Of a stretch of DNA of 64,000 bases, positions 18,415 to 39,879 are shown piece after piece. The stretch comes from an uncultured Candidatus Saccharibacteria bacterium (lineage in GTDB: Bacteria; Patescibacteriota; Minisyncoccia; Phycocordibacterales; DATDWN01), in the NCBI GenBank assembly GCA_964468795.1, contig CAYXWL010000001.1:232246-296245 (forward strand). Direction: 5' to 3'. The position numbers and the translations under genes were made by a program. Every line of letters begins with the position of its first letter. Positions within the stretch are counted from its first letter, which is position 1. The notes beneath the pieces are model-generated. The model worked only from the letters and a program-made list of their open reading frames with translations, was not told the origin of the DNA and did not search any database.

Positions 18415-18420
18415 AGAAAA

Positions 18421-18442
18421 GCACCACGATTTTTTGTGGTGC
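18421..18442 (-). terminator. hairpin terminator at the AT/GC composition boundary
   Basis: GCACCACgattttttGTGGTGC, followed by a T-run on the minus strand. Ends the minus-strand GC-rich operon. Confidence 0.55.
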
Positions 18443-18575
18443 TGGAAGTGGTGTGCAGTCCAGATCTTTAGCATTGCGAGCGTTGGCCACCTCCTTGGTT
18501 TTCAACTTAGCCGCTCGCGTAGCGATCTGGTTACGGCTTGTGCCGTCATCCGTTCCCACTTAGGGAACGACTCAA

Positions 18576-18695
18576 TTAGTCCTCTGGCCTCTGCACATGC
18601 CTGGACCGCGATATGTTGGGAACTCCATGCAACATGAGTGCGCACTCCGCCTTTGTTACAGCGCCCTCCGCTAGAGGGTAACGTGCCGTCTTCAT
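18576..18695 (-). CDS. candidate 39-aa ORF (last gene of the GC-rich operon)
   Basis: Own translation MKTARYPLAEGAVTKAECALMLHGVPNISRSRHVQRPED, placed just after IR copy a. Below the track cutoff. Confidence 0.25.
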   Translation of the reverse strand: MKTARYPLAEGAVTKAECALMLHGVPNISRSRHVQRPED

Positions 18696-18703
18696 GGTGG
18701 AGC

Positions 18704-18745
18704 TCCCATCAAAAGTTTCAAATTATTTTAAAATCTTTGATGGGA
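18704..18745 (-). repeat. IR family copy a: TCCCATCAAA - AT-rich spacer - TTTGATGGGA
   Basis: 10-bp perfect inverted arms read directly; gene orientation is minus. Confidence 0.7.
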
Positions 18746-18885
18746 GGGCGAACAAATTTCGTTGCTCACCCATTGCACTGCGGTCTCGCCCTGCCTTATC
18801 AGCAAACGAAGTGTCTAGCTTCGTTGCTCGCTTAAGTCATTTCTGACATCAGCGAATTCGCGCAGGATCCCCGCTCAAGTTTGTG

Positions 18886-19386
18886 CTAACTCAGTCGACC
18901 CAATAAGGTTTGCCCTGTCGATACCAATCTGGCGTATGACCACCACTGACTGTAATCAGTGAGGATTTCCATACGCCAATGGCTGTCGACTCTGCCGGGA
19001 ATGGGCGGACACAATTCGATGAACGGAGATTGCTGATTGCGCAACTCCTCGTCCCTCGAAACGCGCCTCGCACACACCGGCAAAGTGACACCACTCGCAT
19101 CTTTGACGAATGCGACATTGGCACTGAGCCTCGACGAAAGTTTCCCACTGCATACTCGACCGTCTTTCTTTGGCGCAAGTAAGTTGAGAAAACTGTCGAT
19201 CGAGATAGGGCGATACCTCGTCAGGATCCGCTGCGCGTCGACGTATGTCCCGAGGTCCCAGAGAAGCAAATTGCTCTTCTCTTCGTTCCGGCGCACTTCC
19301 ATATTGCTAAAGTGACGCTCGAAAGTCTCACAAACCTCGAGGACGTTGACACTCACAAGGCGATCCCGAACGATGTAGTTTTCCAT
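18886..19386 (-). CDS. hypothetical protein (166 aa)
   Basis: Start set at MENYIVRDRL, preceded by AAAGGAGGG. GC-rich module. Confidence 0.55.
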   Translation of the reverse strand: MENYIVRDRLVSVNVLEVCETFERHFSNMEVRRNEEKSNLLLWDLGTYVDAQRILTRYRPISIDSFLNLLAPKKDGRVCSGKLSSRLSANVAFVKDASGVTLPVCARRVSRDEELRNQQSPFIELCPPIPGRVDSHWRMEILTDYSQWWSYARLVSTGQTLLGRLS

Positions 19387-19420: not shown

Positions 19421-19534
19421 AAAGAACTTTGGAACAATTTTGTTCCTTCAGAATACTTAACCTAGGTTAAACCCTCTGAAGGAAGTCCGAGGATATATGA
19501 CTTCCTCGGACGATACCGGGCTGACGCGCCGATA
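19421..19534 (-). promoter_or_regulatory. conserved structured leader, copy B (the homolog is at 26174..26288 on the plus strand)
   Basis: ~75 nt nearly identical to copy A: ATCGGCGCGTCAGCCCGgTATCGTCCGAGGAAGTCATATATCCTCGGACTTCCTTCAGAG. Covarying hairpins and GTTCTTT follow. Confidence 0.5.
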
Positions 19535-19544
19535 GACGTTATTG

Positions 19545-20093
19545 CTAGACTTCTCCCGAGAGATCGTTCGGATCTTCGTGGCCGTCCCACTCGGTGTCGA
19601 CATCTTCTCGCTTCCACTTGAGCCGATGGAGGACGTACTCGATCCTGCCCCTGGATTGTTTGGACAGCTTCCACTTCAACCAGCCGAACTCCTTCTCGAG
19701 CTGAGCAAGATTCTCGATCTGCCAACGCTTCAGGCAAGAAACGAGTCTTGGACTGAAGATGGATTTCGTCGAGATCTCCTCCCGAGGCCGATCTTTCAGC
19801 GAGTCGACGATGGCGTTGAAAGCCATCTCGAACTTCTGTTGCTCTACGGGCGGAGGCGGGAGTGGCTTCGGCGGTTTGCCGGCGTTCTTTCGTGCGGTGC
19901 GAACCTTACGAACTGCCTTGCGGGCAATCTGCATGATTCGCTCCTTCGTGACGGCAAACTCCTGGCCGATGTCGTTGTAGCTCATCCCTTGCGCGAGTAA
20001 GGTCAGGATTCTCTCCTCGCGGGGAGTCGTCCTCATGCGCTCGACTGGTGTGATCTCCGAAATGACAATGCCGAACAAAGTTTTTTTCTGCAA
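19545..20093 (-). CDS. sigma70 region-4-like HTH protein with an extra C-terminal domain
   Basis: TTG start after GGAG. TPREERILTLLAQGMSYNDIGQEFAVTKERIMQIARKAVRKV resembles sigma region 4. FSPRLVSCLKRWQIENLAQL weakly resembles an RpoA-CTD helix-hairpin-helix. Confidence 0.55.
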   Translation of the reverse strand: MQKKTLFGIVISEITPVERMRTTPREERILTLLAQGMSYNDIGQEFAVTKERIMQIARKAVRKVRTARKNAGKPPKPLPPPPVEQQKFEMAFNAIVDSLKDRPREEISTKSIFSPRLVSCLKRWQIENLAQLEKEFGWLKWKLSKQSRGRIEYVLHRLKWKREDVDTEWDGHEDPNDLSGEV

Positions 20094-20128
20094 TGTTTTT
20101 CTCCAAAGAACAAAGGGAAATTATTTTC

Positions 20129-20165
20129 CCGTCAAAACTCTGAAATAAATTCAAAACTTTGACGG
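20129..20165 (-). repeat. IR family copy f (variant arms CCGTCAAA / TTTGACGG)
   Basis: Preceded on the minus strand by hairpin GCCGAACttcgGTTCGGC. Followed by GGGAAAataaTTTCCC, GTTCTTT, GGAG and the start of 19545..20093. Confidence 0.6.
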
Positions 20166-20421
20166 AAGCCGAACCGAAGTTCGGCAAGTGTGATGGTAAA
20201 CTCGGAGTAGTTGTAGCCACTCTTTGCTCTTTAGGTAACTTGCGCCCTTAGCGAATACCCTGATTCCATCGCCAGACAGAATCACGGGAGAGTGGTTAAA
20301 GCTACAACTTCTAACCAACTACTCGCTCAATATGTATCACGGGCCATCACGCTCCACGACACGTCGCAACATTTTTCCTGCTCAAAAAATTCTACGATGT
20401 ACCGTGGAACTTTACAAAGAA

Positions 20422-20474
20422 CTTCTGTTTCGTCGTTTCCGACTCATCAGGTGAGACATACATCTCACGACAGG
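20422..20474 (-). ncRNA. hammerhead ribozyme, type III (HHR1)
   Basis: Minus strand: cCUGUC|GUGAGA-UGUAUG-UCUCAC-CUGAUGA-GUCG-GAAA-CGAC-GAAAC-AG. Full catalytic core, GUC cleavage site. Confidence 0.8.
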
Positions 20475-20558
20475 TGCCTTGGGTGCTAATCAAGACAAAT
20501 GATTTTTGGCCCTACTGCCCCTTGCGGGTACTCGGACCTTCTGTTGCCAAGCCGGTCA

Positions 20559-20939
20559 TTACTCCGGCTCCGTCTCCTCAAGCTGCTCTTCAGCAAGCTC
20601 GAGTTTTCTGCAGGCCTCTTCGAAGGCAACCAAGGCAGGAATGTTTCCCTTGCCCAGCTCTGGCAGCACTACGATTGGGAAGATTTCATCTCCCGTCTCG
20701 AGGTACAACCGAGAACCTTCTCCGTCGTGATGGGCGGCCCGCGAGAACTGGCGATGGCAGGAACGGCACTCGAAATAATCCAAGTCGTTCACTTCCACCG
20801 TGCAAGCTCCACAGGACGGACACCCATAACAAAGGAGTCGGCGTTGCGATTCTTCGTAGGCGAGCATTGGACACGAAGACAAGTGCTCGGACACTGACTC
20901 GTGGCAGTGTCGGCACTTTACCGTCAGTCGCAGTCTCAT
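20559..20939 (-). CDS. Cys-rich zinc-ribbon-like protein (126 aa)
   Basis: ATG at 20939, 5 nt after AGGAGG. CRHC..C..CYGCPSCGAC..CRSC motifs. Confidence 0.55.
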   Translation of the reverse strand: MRLRLTVKCRHCHESVSEHLSSCPMLAYEESQRRLLCYGCPSCGACTVEVNDLDYFECRSCHRQFSRAAHHDGEGSRLYLETGDEIFPIVVLPELGKGNIPALVAFEEACRKLELAEEQLEETEPE

Positions 20940-21315
20940 ACTCACCTCCTATTAAAGAACTTGAGACAAACCATTTGCCTCGTCATAATAATCAAAATCT
21001 TGATTTCTCTGACGAGACCCCGACTGATATTTTAGTCGGGATGTTGTGGTGGTGACTGTAAGCGATTGCAGTCACTTACAACCTTGAGATGTTCGGCGAA
21101 TTCCGAGCACCTCTTAGTGAATGTTTGGCTCCACCCGTATCCGAAATAGATACGGGAATCTGGCGCAAGCGCTGGGTGAGAATCTGCAACTCTCACGCTC
21201 TAAGCACCATTCACTCCCTCATGTATCATGGGCCACCACAGCTCCACGACACCTTGCACAACATTTTTTAGAAAAATTCTGTGCGAGATGTCGTGGATAG
21301 ATCAAAAGAACAGTT

Positions 21316-21366
21316 TCTGTTTCGTCCTTTCGGACTCTTCAGGGAGAATACACATTCTCCGACAGA
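21316..21366 (-). ncRNA. hammerhead ribozyme, type III (HHR2)
   Basis: Minus strand: CUGUC|GGAGAA-UGUGUA-UUCUCC-CUGAAGA-GUCC-GAAA-GGAC-GAAAC-AGA. Only the variable N7 differs from the other copies. Begins 6 nt after the stop codon of 21373..21651. Confidence 0.8.
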
Positions 21367-21372
21367 GCCGGA

Positions 21373-21651
21373 CTAACGTGCCGGCAACGAATAATTTTTT
21401 CTTCTCCACCTCCAAGGTTCATTTGAACCGACTCGGAACACGTAGCGGCCACACCGTGAGGTGTACCAGCCACGCGACTCGTCGGCCTTCCGCATTTTTG
21501 TGCGGAAGAAGTTACGAAGGCGACTCACATCACGCGACGTGAGCGGGCGGCCCTTGAGGACCTTTGCCCAGCTGAAGTACCCGTCTTCACGAGTGATCTC
21601 CAGCAACCGACCACCGAACCGATACTGGCCTCTTGACCACTCGCTTCCCAT
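21373..21651 (-). CDS. hypothetical basic protein (92 aa)
   Basis: ATG preceded by CTAGGAGGTATC. R/W-rich. Confidence 0.45.
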   Translation of the reverse strand: MGSEWSRGQYRFGGRLLEITREDGYFSWAKVLKGRPLTSRDVSRLRNFFRTKMRKADESRGWYTSRCGRYVFRVGSNEPWRWRRKNYSLPAR

Positions 21652-22032
21652 GATACCTCCTAGTTTTGAAAGAATAGTGGGTGTTTGCAGGATCCTCTCT
21701 GACTTTAATAGTCCGTGGCTTATCCACAGCTATTTCCTAGTGGTAACTTACCCACAAGGTCGTCTTTGATTAATCACCGCTAACATTGCACACCCGCGCA
21801 ACGCCAAGATGCCGGCAAGCATCTGGTGGATCGGAGCAAAGTTGCCTGGCCTCAGTTCTGTACGATTGCAGCCACTTTGGACTGCAATCTACCTCTCAGG
21901 CTGCCATGCCTTCGAAACACAGAAGTGTACCTTTGGCTCTGCTCCTAACGAAGATCCATCGGACTCCGGAATTTACCAAACTATTTGTCGAGCAAATTCC
22001 GAAATCCGTGAACCATTTTATTTTAAAGAACT

Positions 22033-22083
22033 TCTGTTTCGTCCTTTCGGACTCATCAGGCGAGACACTCATCTCACGACAGA
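22033..22083 (-). ncRNA. hammerhead ribozyme, type III (HHR3)
   Basis: Minus strand: UCUGUC|GUGAGA-UGAGUG-UCUCGC-CUGAUGA-GUCC-GAAA-GGAC-GAAAC-AGA. 5-bp open stem III. Confidence 0.85.
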
Positions 22084-22133
22084 CCAGGATGACGCTCTGG
22101 TAGACGTTTAGGAGATTCTGTTGCCGAGCTCTC

Positions 22134-22352
22134 CTAGTGCTCCGAGGCTGAGTCAGTGAGGATCAGCGTGGTAACCTCGGCGTAAAACGCCTCGACCTCT
22201 GGTCCACCGAACAGGGGTTTGTAAGACCCGTCGGAGTTCCGAGGCCAGATGCCTATGATGGCATCGAGCGTCGCCTTCGAGAGGTTGAATCTCTCGAAAG
22301 TCTTCCGCGCGAGTTCCTCCGAGATCCCCGTGATCTGATAGACTCTTTTCAT
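22134..22352 (-). CDS. hypothetical protein (72 aa)
   Basis: Start MKRVYQITGISEELARK after GAGGAGAGTGAC. Confidence 0.45.
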   Translation of the reverse strand: MKRVYQITGISEELARKTFERFNLSKATLDAIIGIWPRNSDGSYKPLFGGPEVEAFYAEVTTLILTDSASEH

Positions 22353-22388: not shown

Positions 22389-22460
22389 TCCCATCAAAGA
22401 AATCAAGCTTTATTATTTTCTTGAAAGTAAACTTTCAAGTTGTTAATTGCTTTGATGGGA
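22389..22460 (-). repeat. IR family copy b: TCCCATCAAAG - 50-nt AT-rich spacer - CTTTGATGGGA
   Basis: 11-bp perfect arms. The spacer contains hairpin CTTGAAAgtttacTTTCAAG. Confidence 0.7.
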
Positions 22461-22566
22461 GGGCAAACGATGTTTTGTCGCTCACCCATGTTTACCCATG
22501 CTTTTACGCGGAAGGATTTTTCCACAACTTCGGTGCCTTGGCCGAAGGTTGACGCACCCAGTCGGA

Positions 22567-22743
22567 TTACTTCTTCCGATAGCCAGGCTTCCCGCCACAG
22601 GGAACGGAAACTGCTTTCACAGATTCCCGTTTTGCGGTTTTCAGCCTGCCGTCGTAGAAGTAACCAGCCCGAGCGAGGATCTTGTTGGCTTGCGCCTCCA
22701 AAGTCCTCTGATGGTTTGTGGCCACCATTGTGATTGTTGTCAT
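22567..22743 (-). CDS. hypothetical protein (58 aa)
   Basis: MTTITMVATNHQRTLEAQ.. preceded by GAGGAGGATC. First ORF after a ~370-nt leader. Confidence 0.4.
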   Translation of the reverse strand: MTTITMVATNHQRTLEAQANKILARAGYFYDGRLKTAKRESVKAVSVPCGGKPGYRKK

Positions 22744-23116: not shown

Positions 23117-23145
23117 AGTATATACTAAACGTATATTTTTGTCAA
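23117..23145 (-). promoter_or_regulatory. sigma70-type promoter for the minus-strand GC-rich operon
   Basis: Minus strand TTGACA - 17 nt - TATACT. Confidence 0.55.
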
Positions 23146-23280: not shown

Positions 23281-23309
23281 TTGACAAATAAAATGAATGG
23301 GTATATACT
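23281..23309 (+). promoter_or_regulatory. sigma70-type promoter for the candidate ncRNA
   Basis: TTGACA (23281-86) - 17 nt - TATACT (23304-09). Confidence 0.6.
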
Positions 23310-23314
23310 TATAG

Positions 23315-23658
23315 GCAGACGAGTACCCAGGGTGTTCTTGGGGAAAGGAGGGTTCCATGCACGACTAGTGCGGGCTGGGGAACCGGGGGTTGTTAACCCC
23401 CGGTGTGGCCTCCAGTTTGGCTAGTCATAGATTGTGGAGGAAGCAAAAGTGGACGACTAGCACATAGGTGGTTCCAGTTCCATGCGTCCGACCACCAGAT
23501 AGTCAGAGGACGCGAGACAGATCATCTTCGTTCAGTTCAAGGTGGAAAATCCACCAGACAAAGAGAGAAGTGTGATTCCGTCAATCGTTCCCGGCGATTA
23601 GTCTTCGGGAACAACATGCCGTGGCGACAACTTACCGTCGCCACGGCATTTCTTATTT
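23315..23658 (+). ncRNA. candidate novel structured RNA (~340 nt) with its own promoter and intrinsic terminator
   Basis: GC-rich island between a consensus promoter and terminator ATGCCGTGGCGACaacttaccGTCGCCACGGCAT+TTTCTTATTT. Many helices, e.g. CCGGGGGUUguuAACCCCCGG and GGUGGAaaaUCCACC. Confidence 0.5.
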
Positions 23659-24393
23659 ATGATCAAAGATATATTTAATTAGGCTTTTGAGAGTGTCTGC
23701 AAACTCTTTGCTTTTTATTAAAATACCAGATGGTCTCTTTCCCAGAATAGATATTCTCACTTGGTCACCATAAACAGTAATATCGCTACTTAAAGGATAC
23801 TTCTCTGAATTTATTTTTAGCCTCTCTCCCATTTCATCTGATGGTTTATCTATATTTTTTGAAGTGTATATAGATCTAGATTTAATTCCTCTTGAAATCC
23901 TACGATCTTTTAGTCTACTTGTTTCTTTATCATCGAAAATATCCTTAACTAGATCTAAAGGATAAACTATATAAACAGGTTCATCAGGAAGTATTTTTAT
24001 AAAAGTATCATCATTTGAGCTAAGCACCCCTTCTTTACCATCAAAAAACTGAACCATTGGTTTTTCCCCTTGTTCTCTTTGGATACCTTTTAATTGTGGG
24101 ACGATAATATCTAGACCTTTTTTATTCTCTTCTAATAAGTGGATCTGTCTTTCTACGAACAAGCCAAGTTTTTCTGGAGGTTCAGCAATATAAAAAGTCT
24201 TTTTTCCAATATTTGATTCACTAACTAAACCCTTCTTCTGTAAAGATTCCAGGATCACGTATGCAGTAGGACGCTTTATCGTTGCTTTTTCGGCAATTTC
24301 AGTTACAAGAGCTTTATCAAAGGAAAGAAGAGCTAAATAAACTGCTGCTTCCTTATCACTAAGCCCAATATCTTTAAGGTATTTTTCAAACAT
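23653..24393 (-). CDS. TrmB-family transcriptional regulator
   Basis: N-terminal LGLSDKEAAVYLALLSFDKALVTEIAEKATIKRPTAYVILESLQKKGLV winged HTH. AT-rich like the host. Confidence 0.75.
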   Translation of the reverse strand: MFEKYLKDIGLSDKEAAVYLALLSFDKALVTEIAEKATIKRPTAYVILESLQKKGLVSESNIGKKTFYIAEPPEKLGLFVERQIHLLEENKKGLDIIVPQLKGIQREQGEKPMVQFFDGKEGVLSSNDDTFIKILPDEPVYIVYPLDLVKDIFDDKETSRLKDRRISRGIKSRSIYTSKNIDKPSDEMGERLKINSEKYPLSSDITVYGDQVRISILGKRPSGILIKSKEFADTLKSLIKYIFDHK

Positions 24394-25662: not shown

Positions 25663-25690
25663 TTCTTCTGGGCGAGTTGTTAACTCGCCC

Positions 25691-25730
25691 TCCCATCAAA
25701 GTAATTAAATTTTTGATTTCTTTGATGGGA
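25691..25730 (+). repeat. IR family copy c
   Basis: GGGCGAGTTgttAACTCGCCC hairpin, then TCCCATCAAAG-18 nt-CTTTGATGGGA. Confidence 0.7.
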
Positions 25731-25782
25731 CAATTTGGTCCCGATTTGTTCATTTCAATTTTCAGTGCCCAAAGGAGGGCCC

Positions 25783-26154: not shown

Positions 26155-26173
26155 TCAACATAAAGATCCGTCC

Positions 26174-26288
26174 ATCGGCGCGTCAGCCCGATATCGTCCG
26201 AGGAAGTCATATTATCCTCGGACTTCCTTCAGAGAGTTCAACTTTGTTTGAAAATTCTGAAGGAACGAATAGTTCGTTCTGGTTCTTT
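26174..26288 (+). promoter_or_regulatory. conserved structured leader, copy A
   Basis: ATCGGCGCGTCAGCCCGATATCGTCCGAGGAAGTCATATTATCCTCGGACTTCCTTCAGAG ... TTCTGAAGGAACGAAtagTTCGTTCtgGTTCTTT, then GGGGAGG and ATG at 26302. Confidence 0.5.
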
Positions 26289-26520: not shown

Positions 26521-26550
26521 TTCTTCTGGGCGAACGTAATTTGTTCGCCC

Positions 26551-39777: not shown

Positions 39778-39805
39778 AAAAATATTTTGCTTTTATTTAT
39801 AAATG

Positions 39806-39879
39806 TGCGCCTGCCTGGACTCGAACCAGGGACCCCAGAGGTATAAGCTCTGTGCTCTAACCAACTGAGCTACAGGCGC
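39806..39879 (-). tRNA. tRNA-Ile with anticodon UAU
   Basis: GCGCCUG-UA-GCUC..GAGC-A-CAGAG-CUUAUAC-CUCUG-..CCUGG-UUCGAGU-CCAGG-CAGGCGC-A. No encoded CCA. Confidence 0.8.

Follow-up and report, generated by a model that had tools for sequence, protein, structure and literature searches.

A family of type III hammerhead ribozymes linked to a TrmB-like regulator in Patescibacteria, with three copies between small genes in a Candidatus Saccharibacteria genome

Clusters of hammerhead ribozymes that flank single genes have been described in bacterial prophage regions, such as the triple hammerhead around ardA in Agrobacterium tumefaciens; these arrays cleave polycistronic transcripts of approximately 2 kb in vitro, and cutting of long RNAs to gene-length mRNAs was proposed as their role (Perreault et al. 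2011, PMC3088659). According to a 2019 review, this processing role is still a suggestion that needs more work, and both the role of genome-encoded bacterial hammerheads and the reason for their association with particular genes are still open (PMC6765202). Here, we analysed a stretch of 64,000 nt from an uncultured Candidatus Saccharibacteria bacterium (contig CAYXWL010000001.1; hereafter, the window), which contains three type III hammerhead ribozymes on its minus strand, one after each of three consecutive small genes. As in the clusters of Perreault et al., several same-strand hammerheads bracket single genes or short blocks, and the same role is proposed. The differences are that the host belongs to the candidate phyla radiation (CPR)/Patescibacteria, that no integrase or phage hallmark genes were found among the proteins of the genomic island in which the ribozymes lie, and that the arrays show linkage to a TrmB-like regulator, contain micro-genes that are orphans, can include at least six ribozymes in 8 kb and have a conserved GUUCUUU box after the ribozyme.

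The three ribozymes are listed below with their scores in the Rfam model RF00008 (Hammerhead_3) and in R1, a family-specific covariance model built from relatives.

22031-22084, minus strand: HHR3, type III hammerhead (RF00008, 41.5 bits, E = 1e-6; R1, 72.2 bits; predicted cleavage 3' of C 22078)
21314-21367, minus strand: HHR2, type III hammerhead with A at the variable core position 7 (RF00008, 44.4 bits, E = 1.5e-7; R1, 76.5 bits; predicted cleavage 3' of C 21361)
20422-20475, minus strand: HHR1, type III hammerhead (RF00008, 42.3 bits, E = 5.8e-7; R1, 70.6 bits; predicted cleavage 3' of C 20469)

Each copy is 54 nt long. The minus-strand RNA of HHR3 (22084-22031) reads GUCUGUC/GUGAGAU-GAGU-GUCUCGC-CUGAUGA-GUCC-GAAA-GGAC-GAAAC-AGAAG, where the slash marks the predicted cleavage site. 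HHR2 (21367-21314) follows the same plan but has GGAGAAU/AUUCUCC as stem I and CUGAAGA in the core, and HHR1 (20475-20422) has GUGAGAU/GUCUCAC as stem I and GUCG/CGAC as stem II. All three contain the complete catalytic core and a GUC triplet, with loops capping stems I and II and stem III left open, which is the type III layout; RF00008 aligns with each of them end to end, over model positions 1-54. By core, helices and topology, the three copies are genuine type III hammerheads. The predicted scissile bonds follow C17 in each copy and lie at 22078/22077 (HHR3), 21361/21360 (HHR2) and 20469/20468 (HHR1). A preliminary description of this locus, made from the sequence, had given the same core, topology and cleavage positions, and the minus-strand sequences that it quoted match the DNA exactly. 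For stem I, however, 7 bp and a 4-nt loop with U-A or U-G as the closing pair is a better reading than the 6 bp and 6-nt loop given there. Stem III of the window copies is short (4-5 bp), and no extension of it was found in their flanks.

In the 64 kb, there are three occurrences of the core pattern CTGANGAG..CGAAAC compared with 0.09 expected, and none of 100 shuffled sequences reached three. A 5-kb scan with RF00008 gave 41.5-44.4 bits and E-values of 1e-6 to 1.5e-7. These scores are below the gathering score of the model (48.5 bits), and a default whole-window Rfam scan therefore omits the hammerheads and reports only a tmRNA and two tRNAs. Thus, the Rfam hit above threshold that the preliminary description had named as a check was obtained for no copy, whereas the E-values are highly significant and some relatives do pass. 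The R1 scores of 70.6-76.5 bits correspond to an E-value of about 1e-17. When R1 was run on the window with filters off, neither extra nor degenerate hammerheads were detected; because the next best match reached only 11 bits, the window holds exactly three copies. Rfam scans at E-values up to 10 revealed no other ribozyme class (twister, pistol, hatchet or other hammerhead types) in the island, and the same classes were absent from the scans of 17 related loci and of 13 loci that have the TrmB-like gene and lack a hammerhead.

To define the distribution of this ribozyme, the pattern CTGANGAGTCNGAAANGACGAAACAG was used to scan one genome per species (185,579 species), which yielded 73 loci. 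According to the record titles, 52 of these belong to Patescibacteria/CPR lineages (Saccharibacteria, Paceibacterota, Parcubacteria, Minisyncoccia and others), including one in a Nanosynbacter metagenome-assembled genome (MAG; L006, related loci being designated by L numbers). Twelve have no lineage label, and the remaining nine carry other names, at least one of them with a ribozyme and flank identical to those of a Wolfebacteria contig. In 84 fetched loci, mostly from Patescibacteria MAGs, R1 identified 152 copies, up to six per 8 kb. Compared with the 73 hits in genomes, the family pattern gave only 11 hits in 2.9 million viral contigs. Inside one hammerhead array (L024, 4909-4977, plus strand), a DUF3800-IX RNA motif was also found above its gathering score (RF02968, 43.1 bits).

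Covariation was assessed in a gapless 54-column alignment of 88 copies, for which a perfectly paired stem I was required. In this alignment, 98.2% of the cells form standard pairs, and double compensatory changes are present in 11 of the 16 pairs, among them all seven of stem I and three of the four of stem II. The covariation score was 0.628, whereas shuffles gave 0.199 ± 0.010 and slid registers did not exceed 0.126. Because the pattern of the genome scan fixed the 3' strand of stem III, part of the near-invariance of this stem follows from the search itself. In the first extraction, stem I had been left free, and nearly all copies were paired there too. The preliminary description had taken compensatory changes among the three window copies as a sign of selection on structure; this argument is thin with three copies and strong across the family.

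Among 150 hits aligned with the model, no core column is less than 95% invariant, and the base at position 17 is C in 115 copies, U in 19, A in 13 and G in none (0 of 147), which fits the NUH rule imposed by cleavage chemistry. The cleavage triplets are GUC in 89 copies, GUU in 14 and GUA in seven. Retention of the core and of the NUH rule alongside free covariation of the stems bears the mark of selection on the RNA. These data also bear on the alternative that the copies are chance matches or decayed, inactive relics. The scores under the gathering threshold would be in line with it, but it is effectively refuted by the three matches where 0.09 were expected, the R1 E-values, the intact cores and the approximately 150 covarying relatives.

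Compared with RF00008, the family has the same core, three-way junction and open stem III, whereas it differs in its short stem III (4-5 bp), its loop 1 of the G-N-R-U type and its GAAA loop 2, and in that most members score below the gathering score. Both loops are conserved: loop 1 is mostly GUGU and closed by U-A, and loop 2 is A-rich. Six R1-detected copies in the 17 related bacterial loci pass the gathering score (48.8-54.5 bits); the family straddles the Rfam threshold, and routine annotation would largely miss it. Variants in which an extra hairpin of ~17 nt replaces loop 2 occur in L034 (742-810 and 2183-2251) and L067 (536-604, 6182-6250, 6969-7038 and 7833-7901). The AAA at the 3' side of loop 2 is kept even in variants with such a long stem II, which hints that these adenines make a tertiary contact with loop 1.

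The conserved partner of the hammerhead arrays is a regulator gene, which in the window lies immediately upstream of the ribozyme operon.

23653-24393, minus strand: TrmB-family winged-helix regulator gene (Pfam PF01978, E = 5.9e-16)

A TrmB-like regulator is the only protein widely common to the loci selected by their hammerheads (29 of 73). Its gene either precedes the ribozymes on their own strand, in which case the first ribozyme comes 1-2.3 kb past the TrmB stop codon, or is divergent from the ribozyme operon. In a reverse, non-circular test, we picked 80 metagenomic loci by TrmB homology alone (47-79% identity) and then searched them with R1. The search detected 95 hammerheads, and all 95 are on the TrmB strand. 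Of the 50 loci in which the sequence downstream of TrmB extends for 2.5 kb or more, 33 have a hammerhead within this distance (median position of the first, 1205 nt), compared with only 1 of 44 loci within 2.5 kb upstream. The hammerhead family is directionally linked to the TrmB-like regulator, and the operon may be regulated by this protein.

The window has the appearance of a small, low-GC bacterial chromosome (GC 0.35-0.40) with a tmRNA, a tRNA-Ser and a tRNA-Ile(UAU), and contains an island with a GC of 0.44-0.50 at about 18-28 kb. The tRNA-Ile (39805-39879, minus strand) is a side observation: its UAU anticodon is unusual in bacteria, which mostly read AUA with a lysidine-modified CAU anticodon. 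On the minus strand, the TrmB gene is followed by a bidirectional terminator, an AT-rich spacer with two divergent promoters, a leader of ~360 nt and the open reading frame (ORF) of 58 aa; then come the 72-aa ORF, HHR3, the 92-aa ORF, HHR2, the 126-aa ORF, HHR1, the 182-aa ORF, the 166-aa ORF and a terminator. A good Shine-Dalgarno (SD) sequence is present at every ORF of the operon. An identical locus is found in the assemblies ERZ27283008 and SRR6837549. The elements of the predicted unit are as follows.

23117-23145, minus strand: putative operon promoter, TTGACA-17-TATACT, 11/12 consensus (consensus scan; conserved in L049 and L067)
22567-22743, minus strand: first gene of the operon, encoding a 58-aa basic protein (GTTCTTT box and SD in front; no family match)
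22134-22352, minus strand: 72-aa ORF with SD (stop codon 50 nt before HHR3; 62% identical orthologue without frameshift in L049)
21373-21651, minus strand: 92-aa ORF with SD AGGAGG (stop codon 6 nt before HHR2; exact protein called on independent assemblies; no family match)
20559-20939, minus strand: 126-aa Cys-rich, zinc-ribbon-like ORF (stop codon 85 nt before HHR1; weak zf-BED Pfam match, E = 3e-4; 126-aa gene called in L074)
19545-20093, minus strand: 182-aa ORF with a helix-turn-helix (HTH) of the sigma-70 region 4 type (Pfam PF04545, E = 1.7e-7)
18886-19386, minus strand: 166-aa ORF, last sizeable gene of the unit (preceded by a hairpin repeat and a GTTCTTT box, without hammerhead)
18420-18443, minus strand: intrinsic-terminator-like hairpin with T-run, end of the unit (consensus scan)

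Thus, as had been described, a ribozyme follows each of three consecutive small, SD-led ORFs, and the distances of 50, 6 and 85 nt (HHR3, HHR2 and HHR1) from the preceding stop codons agree with the 6-85 nt given earlier. The polycistronic transcript proposed at the same time is supported in so far as consensus scans place one strong predicted promoter and one predicted terminator around the genes; that the transcript is then cut is what we infer from the ribozymes it would contain. The region of 18.3-24.5 kb has no strong promoter-like sites other than the divergent pair at about 23.1-23.3 kb. No promoter match of at least 10/12 was found inside the operon by the consensus scan, and one weak internal match (9/12, at 20417-20389) overlaps the 3' end of HHR1 and enters its leader. 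Across the family, the 200 nt ahead of hammerheads show no enrichment of promoter-like sites (1 of 128, compared with 3.9% of random windows), which is consistent with placement of the ribozymes inside operons.

The other promoter of the divergent pair belongs to an apparent short transcript on the plus strand (23281-23655), which is divergent from the ribozyme operon and convergent with the TrmB gene. Besides a conserved promoter (TTGACA-17-TATACT, 23281-23309, 11/12) and a terminator (23616-23649), it has hairpins that covary in an alignment with 10 related loci, and it had no match in Rfam. Two conserved SD-preceded mini-ORFs of three codons (Met-x-Asp-stop) are present at 23357-23368 (ATG CAC GAC TAG) and 23449-23460 (GTG GAC GAC TAG). 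A CTAGTC further downstream pairs with the GACTAG of the first mini-ORF, and this conservation could therefore reflect RNA structure and not coding.

A pattern made from the core, stem II and stem III of the window copies exactly matches a 457-nt contig in the viral set, which ends with ...UACUGUC, starts with the ribozyme body and contains a hairpin ribozyme on the other strand (RF00173, 79.4 bits). The combination of a hammerhead and a hairpin ribozyme marks nepovirus satellite RNAs (sTRSV/sCYMV type), and we assign the contig to this type because of the hairpin ribozyme. With this satellite-like contig, the window ribozymes share an identical core, stem II (GUCC-GAAA-GGAC) and stem III (CUGUC/GAAACAG), and the likeness to sTRSV and RiboJ that the preliminary description had pointed to thus holds. 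Hammerheads of the satellite-RNA type are proven efficient cleavers. Unlike those of satellite RNAs and RiboJ, the ribozymes studied here lie in tandem between genes of a DNA genome and are not part of a rolling-circle replicon, and their stem I and loop 1 differ.

RiboJ, an engineered part with a ribozyme of the sTRSV type, suggests another arrangement, in which each small gene would have its own promoter and the hammerhead would act as a promoter-proximal insulator that trims a variable 5' untranslated region, with no polycistronic RNA. As in RiboJ, the ribozyme would stay on the 5' end of the downstream message, ahead of the next ribosome-binding site, and the 9/12 match at 20417-20389 might be read as such a promoter. 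However, HHR2 begins only 6 nt past the preceding stop codon, which leaves no room for a promoter. Unlike in RiboJ, no predicted promoter lies directly ahead of the ribozymes, and neither the interior of the operon nor the sequences before hammerheads elsewhere in the family provided the promoter matches that insulators would need. Therefore, we consider separate promoters with insulators very unlikely indeed.

Our best reading, which we consider probable, is that three functional type III hammerheads are contained in one minus-strand transcript of ~4.7 kb that would cleave itself into single-gene mRNAs. We prefer it because the ribozymes lie inside one predicted unit, each of them after an SD-led ORF and before a folded leader. 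The transcript would start at the near-consensus sigma-70 promoter (about 23145-23117) and end at the terminator (18443-18420). Co-transcriptional folding would generate stem I of 7 bp with its GNRU-type loop, stem II of 4 bp with its GAAA loop and the open stem III of 4-5 bp, and the RNA would then cut itself after C17 at the three sites. Because of the type III layout, the upstream mRNA would keep only ...CUGUC, ending with a 2',3'-cyclic phosphate, and the short stem III would favour release of this piece. The downstream piece would begin with a 5'-OH and would carry the whole folded ribozyme as a cap-like structure ahead of its hairpin-rich leader, GUUCUUU box, SD and ORF. In this way, a polycistronic RNA may be converted into single-gene mRNAs, adjacent cistrons would be uncoupled, and their stability and translation could differ.

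Several observations weigh against this self-cleavage into single-gene mRNAs. All three copies are below the RF00008 gathering score, as described above, and nearest-neighbour folding favours pairing of the 3' CAG with the CUG of the core itself, energy models of this kind ignoring the tertiary fold. The covariation set was partly preselected for a paired stem I and a fixed 3' strand of stem III. Promoters and terminators were called from matches to a consensus alone, and little work has been done on CPR promoters. Moreover, 13 of 43 related TrmB loci and some cassettes in the island of the window have no hammerhead, and the ribozyme is therefore not obligatory for the expression of such arrays. 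In these 13 loci (L092, L099, L105, L111, L116, L117, L119, L133, L150, L154, L155, L161 and L167), a close TrmB-like gene is followed by 3.5 kb or more of sequence without any Rfam ribozyme, and some of them keep the 58-aa gene.

The segments that separate the ribozymes from the next SD-led ORF in the window are long leaders.

21652-22030, minus strand: 379-nt leader between HHR3 and the 92-aa ORF (long hairpins, GTTCTTT at the 5' end; fold z = -7.3)
20940-21313, minus strand: 374-nt leader between HHR2 and the 126-aa ORF (fold z = -9.1)
20094-20421, minus strand: 328-nt leader between HHR1 and the 182-aa ORF (fold z = -6.0)

All three consist of long, near-perfect hairpins and fold far better than shuffled sequences, and those after HHR1 and HHR2 are homologous across their first ~130 nt. 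The strong structure that had been noted earlier is thus borne out, whereas the lengths of 380-470 nt were overstated. In the family, the next SD-led ORF lies at a median of 75 nt from the hammerhead; therefore, the long leaders of the window are at the upper end.

The usual module of the family is a ribozyme followed by a GUUCUUU box, an SD and an ORF. In the window, a GTTCTTT box lies directly 3' of each hammerhead and is found again 10-35 nt before each SD. There are eight copies on the minus strand between 19421 and 22782 (7-nt boxes at 19421, 20105, 20416, 20954, 21305, 22025, 22365 and 22776), well above background, and plus-strand copies at 26282, 27150 and 27235. TTCTTT or ATCTTT is present within 30 nt downstream of half of 104 family copies. 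With a box on either side of each long leader, the arrangement gives the impression that insertion of a hairpin-rich element has separated the ribozyme from the SD. Pairing of GUUCUUU with the AAAGGAC of the ribozyme (loop 2 and stem II) was considered and dropped, as it fails in the stem II variants CGAC, AGAC and UGAC, and no consistent pairing partner was found for the box.

A second family of repeats consists of hairpins formed by GTTCGCCCTCCCATCAAAG, an AT-rich loop and CTTTGATGGGA, which precede most of the island's ORFs on the strand that is transcribed. They are located at 18704-18753, 19443-19484, 20143-20168, 20972-21020 and 22389-22468 (transcribed on the minus strand) and at 25685-25733, 26212-26265, 26545-26593 and 27167-27220 (plus strand). 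These repeats also occur at cassettes without a hammerhead and are present in L028 and L049. They are possible RNase III sites, protein-binding sites or recombination sites.

The genes between the ribozymes are hypervariable orphans. For 55 intervals between consecutive same-strand hammerheads in the family, the median length is 598 nt, and the spacings in the window are 717 and 892 nt. Typically, an interval contains one ORF; the longest sense ORF occupies a median of 53% of the interval and starts a median of 55 nt after the ribozyme. The 58-, 72-, 92- and 166-aa proteins have no family matches, the 182-aa protein has two relatives among 5.8 billion protein clusters, and, apart from the HTH of the latter, no cargo gene matches a phage family. 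A prophage or mobile-element origin of the island was considered and rejected: no phage hallmarks of PHROG, Pfam or NCBIfam were found among its proteins, and viral contigs account for only 11 matches, one of them a satellite RNA. Homologues of the 58-aa protein (…LEAQANKILARAGY…PCGGKPGYRKK) with 45-76% identity are encoded downstream of the TrmB-like gene in nine other loci. The remaining cassettes of the window are common only to L049.

Close relatives keep the TrmB gene, the promoter spacer, the leader, the 58-aa gene and a segment of ~160 nt before the terminator, whereas the cassettes between them differ. In the window, this last segment (18451-18611, minus strand, directly ahead of the operon terminator) has 81-89% identity to the same position in L092 and L094, although the upstream cassettes differ; the variable array thus has a conserved 3' boundary, in which a 37-aa ORF (18694-18581) may be encoded. 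HHR3 with its flanks has 96.5% identity to a copy in L049 that is non-orthologous and lies at a different place, which points to exchange between copies. In addition, an inverted repeat of ~100 nt (19439-19538 and 26169-26269, 84-95% complementary) is found at the 3' ends of two oppositely oriented cassettes, those of the 182-aa ORF (minus strand) and of a 139-aa ORF (plus strand), and suggests that cassette-end modules have been duplicated or inverted.

This turnover raises the question of whether the repeats act at the DNA level, with the hammerhead repeats of ~55-90 bp and the hairpin and GTTCTTT repeats serving chiefly as sites of homologous recombination by which small gene cassettes are shuffled, deleted and captured, and RNA cleavage being secondary or incidental. 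The fixed ends around variable cassettes, the match of HHR3 to L049, the inverted repeat and the orphan nature of the cargo would all fit. However, recombination repeats need no catalytic core, and yet every core nucleotide and the NUH rule are kept and the stems covary. A DNA-level role as the main explanation is unlikely in our judgement; it is compatible with self-cleavage into single-gene mRNAs, which it cannot replace.

The geometry of the array recalls plant retrozymes, in which type III hammerheads also form direct repeats 0.6-1 kb apart. By analogy with these and with viroid-like RNAs, a unit cut at both ends might re-pair through the shared stem III and be ligated by the ribozyme or by an RtcB-type ligase. 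The resulting circles could be stable RNAs that are translated, intermediates in the exchange of cassettes, or both, and would be what retrozymes are in plants. The spacing of the direct repeats and the closeness of the ribozyme to those of circular satellite RNAs agree with such circles, and any two copies would be compatible, because stem III (CUGU/ACAG) is nearly invariant among them; this invariance, however, is partly an artefact of the search pattern. Cassettes also turn over rapidly among close relatives while ribozyme flanks are exchanged, as between HHR3 and the copy in L049. If true, this would explain why hypervariable orphan genes occupy the TrmB-linked arrays and why ribozyme flanks are exchanged between positions. 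On the other hand, the interiors are SD-led ORFs, unlike the non-coding bodies of retrozymes, and no long terminal repeat-like, primer-binding site, polypurine tract or reverse-transcriptase context was seen, nor was a reverse transcriptase or an integrase seen among the proteins of the island. A stem III of 4-5 bp favours release of the product over religation, and Perreault et al. detected neither circular nor spliced products when they looked for them in bacterial clusters (PMC3088659). We therefore regard RNA circles or mobile RNA cassettes as highly improbable.

The ribozyme type, its clustered arrays and the idea of RNA processing were already known; a CPR-wide family tied to a regulator is apparently undescribed, and the lineage-wide association with TrmB and the GUUCUUU box appear to be an undescribed context. 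In the literature searched, no paper links hammerheads with Patescibacteria, CPR/candidate phyla or Saccharibacteria; the gene lists of Roth 2014 and Weinberg 2015, which reportedly give classes of ribozyme-associated genes, were outside this comparison. The ribozymes themselves will be no surprise to the specialist, and the family flags what annotation at the Rfam threshold mostly misses. The locus described here would be one instance of a Patescibacteria-wide arrangement, in which a TrmB-like regulator is followed by an operon of small, fast-turnover orphan genes with ribozymes between them. With its large and coherent membership, its fixed directional partner and one small gene per interval, the family provides a defined system for the effects of cleavage on mRNA fate. 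Since the Nanosynbacter group has cultivated, transformable relatives, the question of what bacterial hammerheads do may prove tractable in this family.

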